The notes beneath the pieces are model-generated. The model saw only the letters and a list, made by a program, of their open reading frames with translations, did not search any database and was not told the DNA's origin. From positions 68,510,001 to 68,574,000 of the forward strand of contig NC_092346.1 of the NCBI RefSeq assembly GCF_963676685.1: a stretch of DNA of 64,000 nucleotides, read 5' to 3'. This document shows, piece after piece, positions 5,029-29,700 of this stretch (position 1 is the first letter of the stretch; each line of letters starts with the position of its first letter). This DNA is from Mytilus edulis (lineage: Eukaryota). The position numbers and the translations under genes were made by a program.

Positions 5029-8000
5029 ATGAACGAAATAGTTAAATTATCATTATATGTCTTTTTTCAAATTTACTTTTTTACAGGTAAGAATGTTTAC
5101 TCAATAGTATTTCTTCAGACCAACAATTGTTTTAAACGTCAACTGTAAATACTTCCACATTTTTATATACAAGCACAATATGAGGAAGACTAGAGATTTA
5201 TATTACACATGTGTAGTCTCTGCACATGAAACACTATCGCAAATAAACAGAATTAAGACTGTTTCTTGCAGTCTAGATTAATTTTCAATAACTACGTAAA
5301 ACAATAAGAAAAACAAGGAATAGTTGAAGTTTTGACCGAAATGCAAACTCCCGTTAATTCATCATGTTTAATCATTTACCATGCATGGTTCATTCAATAT
5401 ATCTTGTTCACCGAATGGTTGTTTTTCTGTTACTGAAATCAGAAACTGTTTAAATTTCTGTTTATTGTAAGCGTAGTATCATGCTGTTCATGGATGTAGC
5501 TACTTGAAAATAAATTAATAAATTGTAAGCAGGGTGTCTTAGGGGGTTGAGTGGGAGATTGCCCCCTTCAGCTGAACGATTATAGTAAAACTATTATTGA
5601 AAACAATGTTTCATCACTTGGTTGGAATAACTTGTAAAGATCGTCGCTGGATTTTACCTTGGAGGGTGGATTTGTCCATTTATAGGGTGTGACGCCACTA
5701 TTGGCGTCTATTTGTACACCTTCAATGAGCCGCATACGATTAAATGTAATGTGTAACTACTCACCTACATGTATGTGCAGCAGTCTCAAGTCCTGAACCT
5801 GATCTACTATCTGGAAGAGTGAGAGAGAATTCAAGTATTCCGAAAAAAAATAACGCGTCCGTTTTTAAGGATGTGTCGTCCATTTTTAAGGGTACCCATC
5901 CATCTTGGCGATAAACTCATCATATATGTACTTGTCCAACTAAAGGGTATGGTGTGACTATAAGTGTCCTGTGTCAACTTTAGAGGGTAGAATGGTCTAA
6001 CAATATGGTATGGCGTCATTATTGGCGTCCGGTGTCCACTTTCGAGGGTAGAATGGTCAAACAATAAGGTAGGTCGTCTGCGTCCAGTGTTCAGCTTCAT
6101 TGGGCCTCATTCGATCATATATAACTACTTTTGTATCTTTAATCATGCAAATGTATTGCAAAACTAATGTCCGAAAATCAGTCAGGTAATTTCTATTTGG
6201 AAATAAACATATTTGAATTACGATTAAGCAAGTGCTAAAAAGATCATTATATCCTGTGGAAAGTTCGAAACATGCCTATCCTTTATAACAAGGATTATTT
6301 GGTTGGGATCAAACGACGTAGGGTCGTCGGATAGGCGAAACTACTGACTATCCGTAACATTTTTAATTATTCTTATTTCACATTTGTTTAATTCTATTAG
6401 TATTCTGTAACTGTCCAAGCGGATGGTCAAGACACGACCAATCATGTTACCACGTCAGTAGAGATTCAGCATCGTGGGCAGAAGCCATGGTAAGTATAAT
6501 AACCACGAGGGAAAGTTATAAATAGCAGAATTGCATATCAATCATCAGAAAAGTTAACAAAACAATAAAATAAATAAAGCTATAACTTCCAAGGCATACA
6601 GCGGCCGTTTAATTGTTTCCCCATTTGTTGTCCCGGATATTTTTCTAATTAACTATAAGTACAGCAAGGGCTTTACTCATTGTTGAAGGCCATGTAGTTA
6701 TCTGTAGTCTTTTTTGTGCTTTTGTCATTGGCATGATAATTCACACGACATTTGCCTTTTTTTATGTTATGATCATAATTACATTAGTAACCGTCTTCTG
6801 CTGCAAGATATCATTATCATAACTGTGTTTCAACAAATGCTTGATATTGATGAATTTTTAAAAAGTCATTAGATTCCATGACGCATTAAAAAATCATCAA
6901 TCGGAAACTATCCGATAACACCAGAACTAAAAAGGACAAAGGTTAACAAAATTCCACATATAAAGCTACAAATTTGTCAATATGAAACTAAAAAAACAAC
7001 CCAAAAATGACCACTCACGTAACCTGGAAGGGAAAGGTTTTTTTTTTCAGTTTGAAGGGAATGCTACTAGATGCTAAGCACATACCTACTACAGAATAAG
7101 GACAAACGTAATCATTAGTGTAGAGGTATCAAGTATACTGCGATCATATGTTTAAAAAACGTATAGAAGTATTTCTGCTAAATTATATACTGTTTTATTA
7201 TTTATTGTTATCGTTTAGAAAATGTGTGAGATACACGGAAGTTTCCTTGCAAGCATTGAAACTGTTGCTGAAGACCAGTACATGAAAACCCTACTTGGAG
7301 CTCAACGCCATAGTAAGTAAATATTAAGAACATGCAGATCTGATGAGTTATGCTATTTCCAACTGGTTTGTTCTTATGTAGTTCTGTAACACAACTGAAT
7401 GAATGACTCGATTTGTCAATTCTGAAGAAATTTGATTACACGGGTTAACTGAATGAGTAACTCAATTTGTCAATTTTCATAAATTATTTCAATCAAATAT
7501 TAACTTAAAAGATTGTCACCTTAACTCAGTTCAGTGGCCCACATCTGGATTACATTGTGAAAAAACCTAACGTTATTATCAACCGATAGTTGTAGTTCAC
7601 CTTGTTAAAAATACTTTCAGCTTCCAGCTTTTGGTTAGGTGGATCAGATTGGGACAACGAAGGAGAATGGAAATGGGAACCACATGCAATTCAAATGAAG
7701 TTCACCAACTGGCACAAAGGACAACCAGACAATAGTGGAGGCAAAGAGCATTGTTTATCTGTACACAGATCCTACCGTTACGAGTTTGTCGATAACAACT
7801 GTCACGATTCACAACACTACTTGTGTGAAAAACCGTACGTACTTGTGCATATAGAAACTGATTATCCAAAATTTAGGGTGCTGTCAAAGGTTACATTTCA
7901 TTTTCATTTTAGTTTTAATTCAGATATGAAGGACTCTAAAGTGCGATGGGGACACTAAAGCACGATTACCACGTTAAAGTGCGATGGTCTGCGCTAATTA

Positions 8001-11000
8001 AAGTGCGATGCCTCTATACGCTGAATCCGATGGTCTGCGAAAGTATAGACATAAGAAACGTTGGATTATGACGTTAACAGTCGTTGATACAAACCAATAA
8101 GATTTAATCAAAAGCAGAATACCTTGTAAAGTTACAGAAATTAACAATAAATTCCTTAAAATTGTATAATTACTTTATAAGGACAATGACAAATCAGCTT
8201 CAAAGTAACAACACTTGGTCAGCACCGCAAAAGAAACATTCATACCATGTTTGCTTTCCTTCCATTAAGCGGTTTTCTAGAAGAAGACATTTGTATATAT
8301 TTCCAAAAGGGTCCTTTGTAAAACTAAGTCTCTTGTTGGTAGTCATCTTGGTTGATTGATTTGCTACAAAGTAACAACACTTGGTCGGCACCTCATAACG
8401 AATATTCATGCCATGTTTGGTTTCATTCCATTCAGTTGTTCTTCAAAAGAAGACTTTTGTATGTATATCACATATGGTCCTTTGTTAAACTAAGTTCCCC
8501 GCTTGCAACCATCTTGGGTGATTGATTGGCTACAAAGTAACAACACTTGGTCAGCACCTCATAAGGATAATTCATGCCATGTTTGGTTTCATTCCGATCA
8601 GTGGTTCTCTCAAAGAAGACATTTGTATGTATTGTCCACATAGTCCTCTGTTAAACTAAGTATCCCGCTGGCAACCATCATAGATGATTGATTGGCTACA
8701 AAGTAACAACACTTGGTCAGCACCTCATTAGACACATTATTTGCCATGTCTGGTTTTATTTCATTCAGTAGTTTAAAAGACAACATTTATATGTATTACA
8801 CAAAGGGACCTATGTTAAACTATTTCCACGCCGGCGGCCATCTTGGATGATTGATCGTCCACAAAGTTACAACACTTGGTCAGCACCTCATAAGGAACAT
8901 TCATGCCATGTTTTATTTCATCCATTTAGTGGTTATTTAAAAGAAGACGTTTGTATGTATCTAATCCCATTGGTTCCTATGTTAAACAAAGTCCCTCTTT
9001 GGCAGTCATCATATATGATGAAAAGGCTTCAAAGTAACAACACATCATAAGGAACATTCATATCATTTTTGGTTTCATTCCATTCAGTGGTTCTCTAAAA
9101 AACGACATTTGTATGTATTGTCCATAGGGTCCTATGTCAAACGTAGTCCCCTGATGGCAGCCATCTTGGATGATTGATCGCCTAAAAAGTTCGAACACTT
9201 GGTCAGCACCTCATAAGGAACCTTCATGCCATGTTTGGTTTCATTCCATTCAGTGGTTCTCTAAAAGAATGCATTTGTACGTATATTCCATAGGCCGGTC
9301 CTATGTTAAACGAAGTACCTCGCTGGCGGCCTTTTTTGATGTTGGATCGATTTTACGGTACAACACTTGGTAAGCACCTAATAAGGAACATTCATGCCAT
9401 GTTTGGTTTCATTCCATTAAGTGGTTCTCTAAAAAAAGACTTTTGTACCATCGTACTTGAGTTTAGACAATCGTACTTTTGTTTTCCCGTTTGAATGGTT
9501 TTACACTACTAATTTTGGGGCCTTTTATAGCTTGTTGTTCGGTGTGAGCCAAGGCTCCGTGTTAAATGCCGTACATTGACCTATAATGGTTTACTTTTTT
9601 TAAATTGTTATTTGGATGGAGAGTTGTCTCATTGGAACTCATACCATATCTTCCTATATCTATTTAGCGTAAACCATCGCTCTTAAGCGTGAGAAACCAT
9701 TGTACTTAAGCGTAAACCATCGCACTTCAGATATATATATACAGCGTCTAAATAGTAGTCAACGATTTTCCCCACGAGGGCGCTAGAACGATACATGTAC
9801 ACAATAAATAAATTATATAAACGCCTAAAAAAGTGTACAAAACAACACTAAATTCAAAAAAAGGTAACTATAAATATAATATACAATAAAAAAGTCATAC
9901 CGAATGTTCGGTTTGACTTTTTTATTGTATAAATTTCAAGATTGTAATAGTTTAATCTAAGAAGACTTAAAGATGATTCGTTTAACATCAGAATCTTGCT
10001 GAGGAAGGATATCTGTTATCCGAAATATTCATAAATAATTACATTTATAGTTACCTTTTTTTTTGATTTGGTGTTGTTGTGTACACTTTTTTATGCGTTT
10101 ATATATATATATTAGTGTTGTCAAATCGTACACTTTTGAGTAACCGGTTACTCGAACAATCGTTCGACCGATTAACCGGTTAACCGGTAGTTTGAATTGG
10201 TGCTTGAAAGCGCTTATCAATAGTATCCTACACATAGATAAAAGATGTGGTATGAGTGTCAATTTGAAAACCTTTCATCCAAGTCATAAATTTACGCTTT
10301 TAGAATTGAAGTTTGTCCTTTGGCATTTTAAGGCTTGTCTGTGTGGGTACCTGGCGAAGTTTGACTTTTAATAATCAACTACACCGTATCAACAATAGCG
10401 TGTGTACCAGCTTCAGATTGAAAAATTAAAAAAAAAAATTCTTGATCTCGTAGAATTGAATATGTCTGAAACGGATTATTCTTTCCTTTTCACTTGTTGT
10501 CACCTAGAATGATGTGGAGTGTTTCAATTTGAATGATTAATTATAAAAAAAGAAGATGTGGTATGATTGCCAATGCGACAATTCTTCACAAGAGATCAAA
10601 ATGACACAGAAATTAACAACTATTAAAGGTCACTGTACGGCCTGTTTCTTTACTTTGTTTGCATGTTACTCGTACTATCACGTATACATTGTGTACATTC
10701 ACATTGATTTTCATTTTGCAATTTTTGAGTTAGCATTTCGTTTTTAAGTAAGACTAAGCCCTTCACGACGGAGTTCGCACATTTAGATGTAGGTTTACAC
10801 AATATTAGATCAGAAACGAAATAATGTGAAGTAAGTCGTAAAATTTAATCGCATTACTGATTTAGAGTTACTGTTAAAAAAACATGTAAACTAATTATGT
10901 GTCTTTAAGATCATGCCCCGAGCTGAGAGACAACTTCTAATTAATTTTATGTTATTAGGATTAACAATAGCAATCAATTAACTGGACAATTGATTTGTCA

Positions 11001-11177
11001 AATTAATTACCACGACGACAATTTTTAAATAAAACCTAACTATTTAATGATTTCAATACAAATTTATATCAAATCTATCAAAATTAAAAAAAGTCCGGTT
11101 AACCGGTTAACGTTTTTGGTATTCGGTATTCGGTCGTTCGAACGGTTAACCGGTTAACCGGTTAACCGTTGACAACA

Positions 11178-11247
<70 letters not shown>

Positions 11248-12378
11248 TACTTTTTCACTTTTTTGATCTTTTGAAAAATGTTATTTGTGCTGTATTTAGA
11301 CCCTTCTTCAACGAAATTTGTTTTACATGCACAATTTAGACTTGTTTATATTTTTTCGTTTGGGCTTGTATCATATTTTCCCTCTTATTTATATGATCCG
11401 TTCATCCTATATTGACTCTTAAAATTCAAGAGTCTATCTTAAATTGAAGGTAAATTATATGGCTTTCCAAATAACGTTTCGATTCCTAACATCACTGAAG
11501 AGACATTTATTGTCGAAATCCGGATCTGGTGTACAAAAAATATATTGACACCTTATGTTTGTGGCATAACATCTTGGCCACAAGTTAATTATTTTCTGTT
11601 TAGTATTAAATTTATATTATGATCCGTTTTGTTACATCTTGTGATCAATTTTATTTGGTCTTTTGGAAAATGTTGTTTGTGCTATATTTAGACCCTTCTT
11701 AAAAAAAAATTGTTTTACATGCACAATTATAAAAATTGCGGTTTTTATCCAACGCAATAATAGGTTTGAACGTAGTTTTCAATTTAGACTTGTATATATA
11801 TATATACATATATAAAGATCTACTTTCACACTTACCTCAATGAAAATTTTACACAGGATATCATGAATAAAAACGCAGGTGGAAGTTATTTGATAATTAA
11901 GTGTAAGCTTAACGCCCAACGGCATTTATGTTTCAAGCATATCCAGTACAAGATAAAGAAATAAAAAAAAACAACAACATGGGCACTATAGTTGAATCAT
12001 CCCAAACATCCCATCTCATTAGAATTTGTTCCAAATTTTTAAATAATCTGAATTATTTTTGTTAGGTGACGTCAGTGACCCCCTGCTTGAAATTGATCTC
12101 AACTCGATTAAACTCTTAAAAGATGATTTTCGTGTGCTAGAAATAGCAAATGAGCTCATCATTTGCCAAGTTTTGTGAATTTTCACCTAACAAAATTATG
12201 ATGTTTACAAGAGAAAAGATTCATTAAGATACATTTGTAAGCATCACGTCTAACAAAGAAGTTAAAGGAGATCCTTAATTAAAATAACACCCCAACCATT
12301 TCAACAACAACATCATATTAATGTTTGCTTTTTTTTAGGGACACCAATAGCACAGAAACAGAGGTTCTTGGAAAATGA
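5029..12378 (+). CDS. Secreted perlucin-like C-type lectin, copy 1 (164 aa). Exons 5029-5086, 6401-6489, 7219-7312, 7621-7834, 12339-12378
   Basis: All introns are GT-AG with consistent phases (1,0,1,2); CDS is 495 nt. Signal-like MNEIVKLSLYVFFQIYFFTVFC, then CPSGW..SCY..SWAEAMKMC..LASIE..FWLGGSD..EGEWKW..FTNWHKGQPDN..EHC..C..YLCEK, a canonical CTLD. Confidence 0.92.
8190..9445 (+). repeat. Satellite array, about 8 units of 162-167 bp (Helentron-associated bivalve satellite type)
   Basis: AAGTAACAACACTTGGTCAGCACCTCATAAGG recurs at about 8203, 8370, 8536, 8701, 8864, 9032, 9187 and 9357, with GGCGGCCATCTTGG motifs. Confidence 0.88.
9481..9662 (-). repeat. Interspersed repeat (AGATGTGGTATGAGTGCCAATGAGACAACT family)
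   Basis: Reverse complement of 24232-24420; fragments also at about 10243, 10553, 21400, 28410 and 52960. Confidence 0.75.
9813..10105. mobile_element. MITE with imperfect TIRs of about 70 bp
   Basis: TATAAACGCCTAAAAAAGTGTACAA..GGTAACTATAAAT is the inverse of 10038-10105. Confidence 0.7.
10113..11180. mobile_element. hAT-like non-autonomous element inserted in (AT)n
   Basis: TIR TAGTGTTGTCAA / TTGACAACACTA, clustered subterminal TAACCGGTTA motifs at both ends, ATATATAT on both flanks. Confidence 0.78.
11181..11242. repeat. (AT)n microsatellite, about 31 units
   Basis: Direct reading of the sequence. Confidence 0.97.
11250..11800 (+). mobile_element. Hammerhead-bearing repeat of slightly more than one monomer, between (AT)n tracts
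   Basis: About 65-bp direct repeat at 11270 and 11661 (offset about 391 bp) surrounding the hammerhead at 11489; flanked by (AT)n at 11181-11242 and 11793-11812. Confidence 0.65.
11489..11532 (+). ncRNA. Type I hammerhead ribozyme with intact core (retrozyme/Penelope-type)
   Basis: ACAUCA-CUGAAGA-GACA(uuuau)UGUC-GAAA-UCCGGA-UC-UGGUGU. Stem I is 6 bp, stem II 4 bp, stem III is the palindrome AUCCGGAU; predicted cleavage after C11526. Confidence 0.8.
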
Positions 12379-13715: not shown

Positions 13716-14277
13716 TTAAATCCTTATTTGGAATTATTTGCCACGAATTGGTACGCCATATTATCCATATATTTTATTGTGAAATTATAACTGGCATCAC
13801 GTTTCTTAAGTAGCCGTAATATCGCAATATAGTATGTCAAAGCAACGACGATATCTTTATCCACCGTATTTAGGAATTTTTGCAAAGAGTTGCTTTATAA
13901 TATATCGTGACCAAAAATCCAAAAATATGGTGCATAAAGATATTGAAGTTCTTGGTCTACATACCATGAGATATAGTAATTTTAATCTTGTTCTTCTGTA
14001 TATTTCCCATTGTGTGAATTATATTTACTTTTTTTCTTTAATATAAATATCGAAGTTCCCAAAGAGGCCAGATTTGACAAAATAATTTGGTATCACTTGT
14101 TTTTGTATAAACTGTACTCCACAAATGCTTCTGAATGCCAAGTAATACACTATTGTCAATCATTGGCCCTATGTTTCTTATATCTGCAATCCTTATCTTC
14201 TAGTGCTATACTTTCACATACAGATAAGACTGTTTGATAGATAAATCGCACTACATTTATAAATCGTTATACAATGA

Positions 14278-17200
14278 ATGGGATCATTATTTGTCTTTTT
14301 TCAAATTTACTTTTTTACAGGTAAGAATGTTTAGTCAGTAGTTTTTCTTCAATCAAGGATTGTTTTAAACGTTAACTGTTAATACTTAAGCATTTTATGT
14401 ATTAGTTTAATATGAGGAAGATCAGAGACTTCTATTATACACTACGACTCATTGTCTGAGAAAAGACGCAAATGAGACACTATCGAAACTTAAACTTGAA
14501 GATGTCTCTTGAAGGGCAATTTCTTTTCAATAACTACATAGAACAATGAACATTGTGAATAACTGGAGGCCACGTTAACAAATTAACAGACATTTGACCG
14601 AACCCCACAATCTCGATCATTTATCATGTTATTTGGTTTTGCTATTCAGGTCCAATTCGATAGCTTTAATAAGATTGGAATAATAGTTACTTGTTGACTG
14701 AATTGATGTGCACCTTTTTAGTTTTCTGCTACTAATTTAAAGTTCTGTTAATCTTGAATGTATTGAAAAAAAAACCAATCAAAGGTAACGGATTAATAGA
14801 TCATGCTGCTTTGACGAAAATCATTGTTTCTCTTCCGATTATTTACCCGATGAGGTTAAGTTTTGCGCAAAAGTTCAAATCTAAGAAACTACTTACTTTT
14901 TTTTTTATAGAGGAACGATCTGTTGTCAGTTGAAGCAGAAGACAAATAAGCGAGCAAATAAGATAATTTTGCATTGTTTTCACTCACTTAAATGCATTTG
15001 GTTGATTTGTTTTGCGTAATAGGCAATGTGTAAGAGCTGGGTATTACTATTGAATTCTCAGTCAGTTTGTGTGATGCAGGTACAAATCAATGCGTTCATT
15101 GTTAATAAATAAACTCATCAAAGATACCAGGACTAAATTTTATATATACGCCAGGCGCGCGTTTCGTCTACAAAAGACTCATCAGTGACGCTCGAATCCA
15201 AAAAAGTTTTAAAAAACCCAAATAAAGTACGCAGTTGAAGAGCATTGAGATCCAAAATTCCTAAAAGTGTTGCCAAATACAGCTAAGGTAATCTATGCCT
15301 GAGGTAGAAAAGCCTTAGTATTTCAAAATATTCAAAATTAGATTAAACTCAAATAAGCGCGAGGGAATCTAACGTTCTTTATTTTTTCAAATACAAAAAT
15401 GTATATGCAGCTCCTATAAAAAAATTATCAACGATTATGTATAACGACCAGAACTTGTAATTAAGTTAGCAGAAATAATTTGAACAAATCATCATAAAAG
15501 GAAATTTATCAAGTCCGAAAATCAGTTAATAAATAAATTCAAATTGGAAATAAATATTTAGAGCACGATTACATACAAAATTCATAATAATGTTGTTTTT
15601 TTACGACGTTATAAGCCTTCAACCAAGAGTATTTAGTTGTCTCCAGAGCAGCGTACATCACTCTGAAAATCGAAACTATAGATAAGGCTTTTATAATTAT
15701 TCTTATTTTAAAACTTCGCTATTGTTTAATTCTATTAGTTTTCTGTAACTGTCCAAGTGGATGGTCAAGGTATGATAAATCATGTTACCACATCAGTAGA
15801 GATTCAGCATCGTGGGCCGAGGCCATGGTAAGTTAATAAGTTAACCATAAGAACAAGTTATAAATAGTGACGTTGTTGTATCTTTTATAGTTGCATAATA
15901 ATCACCAGAACAGTTATCAAAACATTAAAATTAATAAAGTTATGACTTCCAAACATAAACGCCCGTCGACAAGTTTACTCATCAATGATGGTCATACGGT
16001 ATCAATCTTATTGTCCTTTGTATGGTCTTTGGTGTACAAGACCGTAAGACTTCACGCCACATCTTATCGTTTAGAATATTATAATGATATTTACACAAGA
16101 TATACCAGAACACCAGATTCAAACTAAAACGACGAATAGACAGACAACAGTTCACAAAACACCACATAGAAAACTGTAAATACGGCAATATGAACTCCAA
16201 CAAAAATAAAAATAACCTGTGGTGACCACTCGGGTAGTCTGGACGGGAAAGCTACGATTGTCAATATTAAGGCAACATGGAACTTGGTGATGGTACAGGT
16301 AAATACTGACTATAATAGTTAAAACTATGATGCAGAAGCCTTTGGTATAAGAACAAGAATTTACAACCTTTTGTCTTGATAAACAGTACATATTTGTTTG
16401 TTTTGAGATTTTGACACAGTGATGACTGCTGTACCCATATTTTGACTATTTTATTATGTCTGTTTTGTTAACGTATCGTTGTAAACATAATGGAATATGA
16501 TGCGACTGCCATACAAGTGAGAGGTTTAGCGCTATAAAACCAGGTTCAATCCACCATTTTCAACATTTGAAAATGCCTGTACCAAATCAGGAATGTGACA
16601 GTTTTGTCCATTCGTTTAATTTGTTTTATCATTTGATTTTGCCATTTGATTAGAGACTTTCCGTTTTGAATTTTCCTCGGAGTATTTTTGTTGTTTACTT
16701 TTTGCAAGTTTGAAGGGAATGCTATGTTTTTAGTAAACTTCTATTACATAATAAAGATAGACGTAATCATTAGTGTGTTGGTATCAAGTATACTGCGATC
16801 GTATGTTAAATACGCCCAGAAATAATTTCTCCTAAATTACATACTGTTCTGTATCTATTGTTATCTTTTAGAAAATGTGTGAGATACACGGGAGTTTCCT
16901 TGCAAACATTGAAACGGATGCCGAAGACCAGTACATTAAAACCCTACTTGGAGCTCAACGACATAGTAAGTAAATACTAGTAATAAGAACATAGATAGGA
17001 ATGAAAGGTATTAGACGAATTTGACTCAAAACTTTACCTTACATATTGACTATTATTTTAAATCTCGTATTTATATTGATCTCAATATCTTCAATCTTCA
17101 ATATTTGCTGGAAATTTCAATTTATTGGGTTTGGTAATTTAATATGCAGTTGTCAATATTTCAGACAAAGCCATGCCTAAGATCCAACATTACAAAAACA

Positions 17201-19069
17201 AATCAATACAGACATAGATTCTGAAGAAGGTCGGCTGGTTTTGTTGTTTTTTTAATTCAAAGATTTGTTGATTCAGAGACATATAATATTTATTATGTCT
17301 CTGGTTAATTTCATTCACAAATTCTGTCAAGCTGGTTTTCCTTCATGGCAGTTGTTGCTCATTTATGAAAATTCGTTGTTTTGAACTGTTGGTAAGCAAT
17401 TGTCATTTATTCAGAAAACGACTTACATACATGCATCACGATTAGGGATCATAGTATCCTACAATTTCATGGTCGAAACCACTTTACTTTATGTGTAGTC
17501 ATTATTTGTTCGACTAATATCAAACTTTAACAAAAACAACCGTTACAACTTATATCTAATCATATCAATCGTAACCAGGATTGAAATGCTATAGTTTGAA
17601 ACGGTAATTCATGAACCGGAAGCCATTTTAGAGGACTTCCCTTCCTATAAAAGTGAACAAAATAGTCATGTACTTTTAGATGACAGAAGAAATCTGAATA
17701 CACAGATTAACAGAATATTCGAATGGACGATTTTTTATTATTTATTTCTGTCAAAGAATAAGATTTACACTGCTGTTTCAGCGACCCATTGAAGGATTGA
17801 ATTGAGAAAAACGACAACTGCCAAAAAAACATATTTACCATTTTGACAGGATTTGTGCATACAACCGTCAATTTAATTTTGAATTTTGAAACAAACATAA
17901 TATACTTTGAAGTTAAAATCAATTGATATCAGTAGTTCATACAACCCCTCTGGTAGATAAAACAGTAATTTTGCACCTTTTATATCCAATACATTTAGCT
18001 GTATCCTACTGGTTAGGTGGATCAGACTGGGACAACGAAGGTGAATGGAAATGGGAACCACATGCAATTCCATTTAATTTCTCCGACTGGCAGAGAGGAC
18101 AACCAAACAATGTTGGAAACAATGAGCATTGTTTATCTGTCCACAGACTCCATCATTATGAGTTTACAGATGACAACTGTCACTATTCACAACACTACTT
18201 GTGTGAAAAGCCGTATGTACTTATTATGTGTTATATTACAACTATATAGGTGCTGTCTCCGGTTACATTTGTCCTTTTCATAATAGTTTTAAATTAGATA
18301 CTCACACTAATCCCGGAGACAACTTTACCCATGCAGGTGGAATGCTATTGATAATTTTAAAAGTGTTAACGTTCTAGAAAGTTCAACGGCTTGTCTTTCA
18401 TGAAACTTTGAATTTTTCGAAAATCTAAGGATTTTTTTTCCCCAGGAGTAGATTACCTTAGCCGTATTTGGCACAACGTTTTGGGAATTTTGGGTCCTCA
18501 ATGCTCTTCAACTTTGTACTTGTTTGGATTTTCAATTGTTTTGATATGCGCGTCACTGATGAGTCTTATGTAGATGGAACGCGCGTCTGGCGTATTAAAT
18601 TATAATCCAGGTACCTTTGATAACTACTTTAGCGTCCAATGCCATATATTTAACACACAGCTTAGCATCCAAGAGAAAAAAACATGGGCGCTAGCTGAAT
18701 CATCATTATTGTCTAATCTCATTTAAGTGTAAATAATCTTAATTATTTTTTTTAGTTAACGTCAGTGACCAGCCTGCTTATAATTTAATTCCACTCTATT
18801 TATCCCTAAAATAATTATTTTTATAGTGAGATACAAATAGTTTGGAAAATGAGTTCTTCATTCCGAAAGAAAAAAGCAAGTTTTAAGATTTTTTACCAAA
18901 TAAGATAATCATGAAAAAAGATTACATGTAGTTACATTTGTAAGTATTATGTATAATAGTGGTTAAAAGTAGTCTTAAAAATAACACCATATCAACAACA
19001 TCATATTTATGTTTCCTGTTTTATTTTAGGGACACCAATAGCACAGAAACAGAAGTTCTAGGAAAATGA
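14278..19069 (+). CDS. Secreted perlucin-like C-type lectin, copy 2 (159 aa). Exons 14278-14320, 15739-15827, 16872-16965, 17999-18212, 19030-19069
   Basis: Exons 2-5 have the same lengths (89, 94, 214, 40 nt) and phases as copy 1. CTLD motifs WLGGSD, GEWKW, QPN, EHC and YLCEK are present. The start codon is less certain because of an out-of-frame ATG at 14274. Confidence 0.88.
15110..15335 (-). mobile_element. Retrozyme-like repeat fragment with a hammerhead motif (15148-15191)
   Basis: Reverse complement reads GCGTCA-CTGATGA-GTCT(tttgt)AGAC-GAAA-CGCGCG-CC-TGGCGT. Confidence 0.75.
16390..16705 (+). repeat. Interspersed repeat (GGTTTAGCGCTATAAAACCAGG family)
   Basis: Homologous to 57425-57640; inverted fragments at about 60175-60290 and 62295-62430. 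Confidence 0.7.
18400..18626 (+). mobile_element. Retrozyme-like repeat fragment with a hammerhead motif (18550-18593)
   Basis: GCGTCA-CTGATGA-GTCT(tatgt)AGAT-GGAA-CGCGCG-TC-TGGCGT, with flanks shared with 2070-2365. Confidence 0.75.
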
Positions 19070-19294
19070 TAAATTAATACTATAAATTATTTTTCAATAT
19101 CTTACTTAATTATTTATAAAGCATTGATTGTTTTTTTTTTGGGGCAGGTTTTTGATGTGTTGTTTTATGTAATTTCCCTGATTGAGGTAAAAATAAGGCT
19201 TAATTTAAAATTACTGGTACTTTCAAAATCACAACATTTCTGACTAAGAGTAAGTCAGCCATATTTTACTTTTACTTGTACGTTTACTTTTAAG

Positions 19295-26700: not shown

Positions 26701-29700
26701 TTTTTGGTTAGATTTGAAAAAGCTTTCTTTAATTTTAGTACAAATTTTCCTAACAGTGGTACACTTCACTTCGAAATATGATCTGAAAAGTGCAGGTTGA
26801 TTTTTTTGAATTTACATTTATTGTTTAAAAAATATATGCTACCCATTACATATTTAAAATTGTATTAAATTGTATTGGGCCATATGTCCTGTGCCAGATG
26901 TTCATTTGTCAAAACAAGAGGCATTTCTCTTTCTCTCTATTTTAAAGAAAAAGTATTAGTTACAAAAACAAGATGTAGCACATGCAAGCTAAAAAGTGAG
27001 ATAATATTTATTATAAGTAGCTATTTTACTATTTATTTATTTTAGCTATTTCATTATCAACTATCAACTATAACTTACACCATAGCACCATCTTCCTAGT
27101 AAATGATGATTAGATGGGTCCTTTTTGTTGAGTTCTATGGCTTTCTCTATATGTTCCTACAAAAAGTACAATATATATATCCATCAGTTACAATAATTTC
27201 AACAAATATTGTGATTGTTATAAGATACACATTCACTAAGATAAACAAAATATTTTTGAGACACCAAAAAAACGTGTTATAAATGTACTACCAAAAGTAC
27301 AATATTTTTTCATTATGAACTATTGGCACATTTAGACTCTTCTTTTAATTATGTCCTTAAGTCATACAACCCTTAATGACCATATATATGCAAGAAAATT
27401 TCACAAGTAGAAACCAAGAATGTTGATGCTTTTAGGTTTACTTGAAAGGAGACTCAAAAAAAATCTATTTCTATTTCTATTTAGATTCCTCCACTAGCTT
27501 ACCTTAAATGTATAACCATTCTTTATCTTGTTCTGTGTTCCTTCGTAGTCACCAATACTTCCTAATGTTATGGAATACCTTAATAAAACAAAACAAACTG
27601 GTGTCAGATTGGAAAGGGAAATTATAATTCATAAACATGTTTCAAACTAATCCTTTATTAAATGGTCCTGGTGATGGTTCTTATTTGATTTGATTTTTTT
27701 TTAAAGTTGGCCTTACAATGTAAATACACACTTTTCATGTTGTTAATCTTAATATGGTAAAACTCAAACTATCTCCACAGTAAGCTAAAGCGACCACATG
27801 CATTTAGTACAGATACAAACCAAGTAACCTTTAAGGATTTCTGTGCATAATAAAATTTTTATAATTCAACACAGCACTGTTCATCTAAACTTTAAATAAT
27901 GTCAGTATGGAAGTTAACCCATGCTTTGATAATAGATAGATATAATTTGCTGCCAATAAGTGCTGTTGCCACTAGAAAAAAACTTAGCAATCTAGAGGCA
28001 TTTAGCAAATCCTTAGAACCAAACAAGTGTAACAGACCAAAGCACATCTGGTTTTCCCTGGGTACCACACAATATAAGCAATTTACCATTATTGACTGCT
28101 GTACTTACATATACTCTACTCCCAGTAGGATATAATGCCACAAAAAATACTGTAGATGTGAAGACATTTTCATATCCCTTGGTCTTTGTAGATATTTGTC
28201 TCCTCAGCAATCAAGCCGAAAGTTCTTGAGTAAATGTATTTTTTTAATGCCAAAAAATATGAAATAATCAATGTTTAAATCTTTGAATTGTTTTACATTT
28301 TTCATTTGGAGCCTTTTACAGCTGACTATGGGGTAGGGGTTTTGCTCATTGTTTAAGGCTGTATGATGACCTATAGTAAAAAATTAGTTGTTAATTTCTG
28401 TTTCATTTGGTCTCTTGTGGAGAGTTGTCTCATTGGCAATCATACCACATATACCACATTTTCTTTTAATAGAGATAAATTCCCCCCCCAAAAAAAAATT
28501 CTGAATTTTCAGTATCAGATATATTTGAAATGAAACCCTATGTTATAAATTACCATTTGTGTGAATTAGCTGATTTCTGATTGAGATGTAAGGCCCTTTC
28601 AGCTGTGTCTTTGGCTGAGTAAAGCATTTCTTTTTTCTTTTCAACATTTCCTTTCCCTCCTTCTATCTGTGCTAACTGATATGTACACTTGGCTAATCTC
28701 CAATGGAAATCAGCATCAGTTGAATACTAAAAAAATATATATGATTGGTTGTATATTTTTTTATGTTTTTCAGACTTTACCAACATCAATTTCAATAATT
28801 ATACTTTGAAAAAAAGACCCTTATTGCAATGTTTTAAAACCTGACAGGTGTCATAATTGACCCTCTGAATGTTTTTTTCTTGGTATCAAAAGTTATTTCT
28901 TAAGGGAACTGATTGGCATACCCACTTTTTTGTTCTTTCTGATGGGTCTTTTCTTGTTTTTATTTGTAAATATGTGAGAAAAAAAAAGAGGGATGACAGA
29001 TATTAAATGGAATAGCCCAATGCCCCACAGTTGTCATGTAGCACATGGAAGAAAATATTGTATTTTTATTTTATTTTCTTCCTTTCTTGAATAAAATAAG
29101 TTGTTAATTGTTATTGAAAACTAAATATCATTGTAATGTGGAAAGGATAATAATGTGCATTACCATACTTTAATTTTGTTCTACACGTCTAAATATGTGA
29201 CAAATTGTAAATGTATAAATTTGAAATATATGGGACCATAATGTTTCCACTTTTACACATACAAATACCTTAGTTTTGTTGTTTTGAAGAAGTTCATATG
29301 CTTTTAATTTTTCTGTTTCTCCCCCATCTATGAATGTATCAATCTCTTTATACAGGGCAGTGACATCAGCACTTTGTTCAACTTTTACTATATCTTCAGT
29401 ATCAGAATCACCTTCTGTTGGAGTTTCAAATTCACTGGAGCTAAAATATAAAACAAATATTTATATATTCCTCTGTCATGACTGTTAAAATGTTGTTTTT
29501 TTAAATCTAAAAGAAGATAAACTACCTCAGCTCTAAATAGCCTGTGTCACTCAAATTGGTCTGCATGCATAATCAACAAAGGACACTCTCCAACATTGAA
29601 GACAAGAATAGAATTCATTACAATAATCTGTTTTGATAATCTTGTAATGCAGTTCATTTAGTTTGTTTAGTATCTCTTTATCTTCAATAGTATCCGTAAA

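Follow-up and report, generated by a model that had tools for sequence, protein, structure and literature searches.

The window analysed here, a 64,000-nucleotide stretch of the Mytilus edulis genome, contains a C-type lectin gene modelled with five exons and an open reading frame of 165 amino acids. Intron 4 of this gene carries a hammerhead-bearing insertion, assigned below to a repeat family termed family C. An earlier note on this DNA described a retrozyme-like monomer in the sense orientation within this intron, flanked by (AT)n. The sequence bears out the orientation, and the tracts are seen on both sides of the copy. The features of the locus are as follows.

5029-5086, 6401-6489, 7219-7312, 7621-7834 and 12339-12378, plus strand: exons of C-type lectin 1 (sequence model)
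7835..12338, plus strand: intron 4 of C-type lectin 1, host of the insertion (sequence model)
11181..11241, no strand: left (AT)n target tract
11242..11792, plus strand: family C insertion about 1.3 units long, running from unit position 206 into the following unit as far as position 364 (numbered from the cut site)
11331..11332, plus strand: deletion junction, 55 bp being lost internally between CAATT repeats
11477..11482, plus strand: putative blocking strand, predicted to pair with 11513-11518 (the catalytic GAAA side) and to block the ribozyme fold
11489..11532, plus strand: type I hammerhead ribozyme, predicted to cut after C11526, with a palindromic stem III for dimer-type folding
11653..11654, plus strand: deletion junction, 96 bp being lost internally between TTTGG-like repeats
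11783..11792, plus strand: fixed 3' end of family C (TTTAGACTYG), the putative start of reverse transcription; the motif is common to the 3' end of the Penelope-like element (PLE) family N2
11793..11813, no strand: right (TA)n target tract

The hammerhead motif and the window copy

In a descriptor scan, 11489-11532 is the sole hammerhead match in the 64-kb window. The motif combines an unbroken CUGAAGA/GAAA/UC core with a 6-bp stem I and a 4-bp stem II, as the earlier note had reported, and thus has the CUGANGA/GAAA/UH core and the two stems of a type I hammerhead. Compact matches are absent from 200 block-shuffled windows, and looser ones occur at 0.015 per window. An Rfam scan of the window yields no match at the gathering score. 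Covariation, also claimed earlier, is upheld: 6 of 14 pairs are altered on both sides among seven aligned ribozymes of this genome and 95.9% of pairs are kept, although these ribozymes are relatives and the counts are not independent events. The palindrome is preserved through double changes, as in the ATCTAGAT variant. Judged by its sequence, 11489-11532 is a real hammerhead motif.

Stem III needs qualification. The palindrome AUCCGGAU is present as described, but its four pairs form only between two copies, and a monomer forms at most 2-3 bp. The duplex between two palindromes has a predicted energy of -10.9 kcal/mol, and a double hammerhead is predicted in a two-copy co-fold, which is the arrangement reported for animal type I hammerheads (PMC4209133). 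In the isolated 44-mer, stems I and II fold with probability above 0.98. Within 160-540 nt of context, the predicted probability of stem I is 0-0.04, and a competing fold is predicted. Pairing of the blocking strand 11477-11482 with 11513-11518 has a probability of 0.05-0.67 depending on context and recurs in the predicted circular fold of the family C unit; a blocked ribozyme is likewise reported for some mussel circles (PMC7229834). The circular fold itself is no more stable than those of shuffled sequences (z -0.4).

Aligned over 550 bases with a unit from a genomic array, the window copy shows 92% identity. Its direct repeats are spaced by 392 bp, in agreement with the approximately 391 bp given earlier, and the 55-bp deletion proposed at that time is borne out by sequence comparison. 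The 96-bp deletion was overlooked, and the restored monomer of about 446 bp is therefore wrong: the family unit measures about 546 bp (542-577 bp in arrays), and the 392-bp spacing results from its shortening by the two deletions. Both deletions were considered as subfamily marks, a possibility rejected because, among the loci compared, the exact junctions occur in the window copy only. An active non-LTR retrozyme copy requires two ribozymes. The window copy holds one and thus cannot release a unit or a circle, so the 0.4-0.45 kb circle that had been suggested for it is unsupported. The locus is an ordinary dead copy of family C, single and doubly deleted. Intron 4 holds two more elements with inverted ends, likewise placed in TA tracts, at 9801-10118 and 10113-11180; the latter contains CGGTTAAC repeats and abuts the left (AT)n tract of the retrozyme copy.

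Family C arrays, transcripts and insertion ends

Across the 1.37-Gb genome, the 42-nt core of family C has 409 exact copies (0 for the control), and the 3'-end motif occurs 1220 times. These cores, together with arrays spaced at 542-577 bp, supply the tandem genomic copies that the earlier note expected, and its proposal of a distinct (AT)n-targeting retrozyme family also stands: family C is a tandem, (TA)n-targeting family of retrozyme type, unrelated to the other hammerhead families outside the ribozyme. At the family level its units are short, non-coding, low in GC (33%) and tandem, with one hammerhead each, as in non-LTR retrozymes; the window copy is a solo. The unit length exceeds the published monomer range of 170-400 nt. 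The 546-bp unit does fall within the 51-972 bp consensus range of vertebrate retrozymes, many of which are solo monomers (Li, Clavereau and Pollet, 2026 preprint, 10.64898/2026.07.22.740005), and size is thus not treated as exclusionary. In Xenopus, 42-44% of retrozyme copies are intronic (10.64898/2026.07.22.740005).

Retrozymes, their circles and their proposed mobilisation by PLEs have been published already (PMC7229834; 10.1101/721605). The non-LTR retrozymes of M. galloprovincialis, represented by construct Mg353, resemble family C in that their tandem units are low in GC, lack coding capacity and each bear a type I hammerhead, in the 6-bp stem I, 4-bp stem II and palindromic stem III, and in their dispersed and transcribed solos and arrays (Cervera and de la Pena 2020, PMC7229834). 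They differ in unit size (350-390 bp), and the accessible part of that report describes neither (TA)n targeting nor a fixed end. The family C ribozyme may have been counted within two published mussel families called similar (PMC7229834). In a literature comparison that covered published descriptions, no account of this family or of retrozyme insertion ends was found. Within that scope, what is new is family C and its contrast with family B (see below), the unit size setting family C apart from the published mussel families.

Units within an array diverge by 1.8% (median of 34 pairs) versus 5.9% between arrays (242 pairs). Among 102 ribozymes whose loci were selected without regard to the motif, 10 array regions included, 82 have a whole core, and the ribozyme shows half the variation of the remaining unit (2.5% versus 5.0%). 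One 5.9-kb array (L062, G000:C6:52925058-52930862) is a near-perfect A-B-A-B alternation of a 1112-bp dimer, in which A units differ from one another by 0-1 positions, B units by 0-2, and A from B by 18-21. The palindrome is broken in its A units, and its 5' end adjoins 61 bp of N2 tail. The alternation is suggestive of repeated copying round a 1112-nt dimer circle, which would give this pattern; DNA-level amplification or an assembly error could give it as well. A 2.9-kb spacing of ribozymes on contig C1, considered as a possible autonomous element, proved to be a rearranged array with no ORF.

RNA evidence comes from four raw runs under a species label that carries the repeat (sampled to about 6% for X21-X23 and 18% for X24), which derive from other individuals and cover many copies, so that it applies at the family level. 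The unit is covered over its full length. First mates fall on the minus strand at about 10:1, 20:1 and 4:1 in X21-X23, and X24 has no bias; assuming the usual stranded protocol, transcription of the family is biased to the ribozyme strand in three of the four runs. Head-to-tail joints are found in 195, 302, 118 and 40 reads, as is also expected from genomic arrays. Read ends do not pile up at the predicted cut in any of the four runs. In X21 and X22, a single haplotype (L058:1265-1810) accounts for 30-80% of ribozyme-strand reads along the unit; it carries A at the cut nucleotide and may represent a single very active locus or a circle.

The insertion ends are asymmetric. Of 22 insertions selected by ribozyme, 15 have their 3' end at unit position 355-375, as do 17 of 22 selected by a post-cut motif, both sets having been chosen independently of the 3' end and cleared of duplicate and edge-cut loci. 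(TA)n is present at the 3' ends of 14 of 22 and 17 of 22 insertions in the two sets, respectively. The 5' ends are scattered by truncation, and the fixed 3' end lies about 365 nt downstream of the cut site. Since many copies also run across an intact ribozyme, the template should be a circle or an uncut multimer. Copies beginning exactly at the cut were considered as fossils of cleavage (9 of 21 pattern matches, 7 of them independent, versus 2 of 7 in a first control). This enrichment was rejected, as the seven independent starts compare with 2, 3 and 8 at control positions (3 of 4 in a second control). At L186/L200 and L199, a family C copy whose limits are precisely the cut site and the fixed end is fused to a 5'-truncated N1 element.

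In all likelihood short of certainty, family C is a non-LTR retrozyme that a Neptune-type PLE enzyme copies into (TA)n, with the window holding a doubly deleted copy. The proposed cycle begins with transcription of the arrays, which is seen at the family level. Two adjacent ribozymes would then pair through their palindromes and cut, and monomers or dimers would be ligated into circles, as in the published class. The helper, presumably PLE-encoded, would nick (TA)n and prime cDNA synthesis at an internal U/A-UAU site that lies about 365 nt beyond the cut. Synthesis running back over the ribozyme for a variable distance would produce arrays, and copies with a constant 3' end and an irregular 5' end. 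A copy with one ribozyme, such as that in the window, would be a dead end, probably with no effect on the lectin.

A somewhat unlikely alternative holds that family C is a non-autonomous PLE whose template is a linear multimeric transcript left uncut, rather than a circle, although the hammerhead is kept. The fixed internal start and the read-through of the cut site need no circle, no RNA ends at the cut are seen, and a blocking strand is predicted. There is also a precedent in the Poseidon PLE of Anolis, which has fixed internal reverse-transcription starts as in family C and for which the ribozyme cut is dispensable: in vitro, uncut RNA is used and ribozyme mutants insert normally (Frangieh et al., 2024, PMC11167929). 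However, Poseidon is autonomous and its start site is not homologous to its target (PMC11167929), whereas C, N1 and N2 have an internal TATA-like site that could pair with nicked (TA)n. The near-identical array units and the A-B alternation better fit repeated copying of one short template, and the preservation of the core and the low variability of the ribozyme also argue against this alternative.

Candidate helper elements

The favoured reading, copying by a Neptune-type enzyme, draws on young PLE families in this genome, N1 with its relatives and N2. These encode a reverse transcriptase (RT), a CX4CxxC linker and, at the C terminus, a GIY-YIG domain, and they end in (TA)n. N1 and N2 (the latter by motif) thus have the domain arrangement of Neptune/Nematis elements, in which RT, a CX2-5CxxC linker and, at the C terminus, GIY-YIG follow one another. 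The label 'Neptune-type' is based on the order of the domains, the linker and termination in (TA)n; the N1 RT matches RVT_1 at E 2e-6, below the curated cut-off. Neptune/Nematis EN+ PLEs resemble family C in bearing a hammerhead, in inserting into (TA)n, in forming tandem copies and in being truncated at the 5' end but fixed at an internal 3' end (PMC8557442). In this genome they are co-located with it. Unlike these elements, family C has no ORF, its homology to the pseudo-LTR (pLTR) is limited to a short end motif, and its ribozyme lies 365 nt before the end.

Co-location was measured in both directions. Three sets of 49, 30 and 40 PLE loci contain the C end motif at 4, 2 and 2 loci versus 0.20, 0.09 and 0.19 expected, where the first two sets overlap and one or two loci are not of Neptune-type. 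The family B core is found in none (1.1 expected). The core of family A' (see below) occurs in three of the 40 loci of the last set versus 0.45 expected, and this mild enrichment means that some general clustering exists. Conversely, Neptune-type sequence is found at 14 of 80 independent C loci versus 0 of 15 A/B loci, a difference that is not significant alone (p about 0.07, hand estimate). Co-location reflects a shared (TA)n target and is not proof of a shared enzyme; we infer that a Neptune-type helper is likely.

The ends of the elements provide a second comparison. N2 terminates in TTTAGACTG followed by (TA)n, and family C in TTTAGACTYG followed by (TA)n. In a comparison with the N2 junction, the highest-scoring C windows are those that include the family's end, a result equalled by 53 of 2000 shuffles (12 of 200 for the whole unit). 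Between C and N1-type UTRs, nine comparisons reveal no similarity above shuffles. One UTR match to C (L119) proved to be an inserted C copy and was excluded from later counts. Two fixed ends, separated by about 100 nt and each with TAGACT, are present in N2, and one N2 3' UTR (L294) contains a hammerhead-like fold whose first core strand is non-canonical. In the flanks of many loci (L039, L093 and L180, for example), there is a tRNA-like, TA-targeted element that ends in TTTAGACGAGTTG, resembling the C/N2 end motif.

It is quite unlikely that the helper is instead a Naiad or another (TA)n-inserting enzyme. The (TA)n bias of both Neptune and Naiad elements is already known, and Naiads, which often favour (TA)n, are abundant in bivalves (PMC8557442). 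Naiad RT is indeed present at 5 of 80 C loci, but it is not commoner there than near A/B (3 of 15 loci). The one Naiad sampled has a family A-like end that is not (TA)n and shares a segment with B, and it has no convincing match to C.

Very unlikely is the reading of family C as the pLTR of an autonomous PLE, with the window copy as its 5'-truncated end. PLE pLTRs do bear type I hammerheads (PMC4209133), and vertebrate retrozymes have been argued to be non-autonomous PLE derivatives from pLTR homology, which includes those of Xenopus (10.64898/2026.07.22.740005). However, no PLE ORF of at least 170 amino acids enters the C unit in 88 loci, the sampled PLE families have different 3' UTRs, and the 2.9-kb ribozyme spacing belongs to the rearranged array. 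The pLTR homology of the vertebrate study is absent in C, and the accessible part of that study names no mollusc and has no analysis of insertion ends or targets (10.64898/2026.07.22.740005).

Related hammerhead families and the host gene

RNA reads reveal an abundant family, B, with 2,931 exact copies and a 350-bp unit. Its size and abundance, rather than a comparison with published sequences, indicate that B is probably the published mussel retrozyme. The C and B hammerheads are identical at 39 of 44 positions, the core differing at 5 of 44. The earlier note had compared the window ribozyme with another hammerhead family; the stem covariation that it described is sound, but its partner was the distant family A, and the closer family B lay outside its view. 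B insertions end 34-38 nt past the cut in 7 of 7 independent cases, none of them in (TA)n. The route by which animal retrozyme RNAs re-enter genomes is still hypothetical. Families B and C, which coexist in one genome and have almost identical ribozymes while differing in fixed end, target and likely helper, would permit a paired test of each helper against each RNA.

The bodies and ribozymes of these families are discordant. The B body is homologous to A (64% over 223 nt), whereas B matches C around the ribozyme only (75% over 106 nt) and its core differs from that of A at 12 of 44 positions, which suggests a ribozyme swap. The Naiad sampled has 32 nt of its 3' end in common with A and a 46-nt segment in common with B. 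Tentatively, the hammerhead module may have moved between lineages, giving 350-bp Naiad-driven and 546-bp Neptune-driven retrozymes that have nearly the same ribozyme and different helper start signals. If true, retrozymes would be modular, consisting of a ribozyme and a helper-specific address, and the TTTAGACT/UAUA site would name both the enzyme (N2) and the primer rule by which an RNA circle is copied into (TA)n. Exact copies of the A' core number 2,988 in the genome. The window holds four A/A' hammerhead copies, at 233, 2314 and 18550 (plus strand) and 15191 (minus strand), and every core is defective: truncated, with a deletion in CUGA, with GAAA altered, or with UH altered.

The earlier note had suggested that the ribozyme may cut lectin intron 4. 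This is unsupported, since a partner ribozyme is needed, a competing fold is predicted and exon reads are lacking: in the four RNA runs, exons 3 and 5 and the greater part of exon 4 have zero depth, with no splice joint listed. The copy probably has no effect on the lectin. That it is an intronic ribozyme used by the host to cut lectin pre-mRNA is highly improbable, for despite its sense orientation, whole core and folding 44-mer, it is one among hundreds of identical motifs of a young mobile family, has a lone ribozyme with an unstable stem III and a stem I disfavoured in context, and lies in a gene with no expression seen. A second C-type lectin gene, a tandem paralog whose exons are arranged in the same way, lies at 14270-19070 of the window, with a short last exon near 19030, and exons of another protein-coding gene are found at 28550-29460 on the minus strand.
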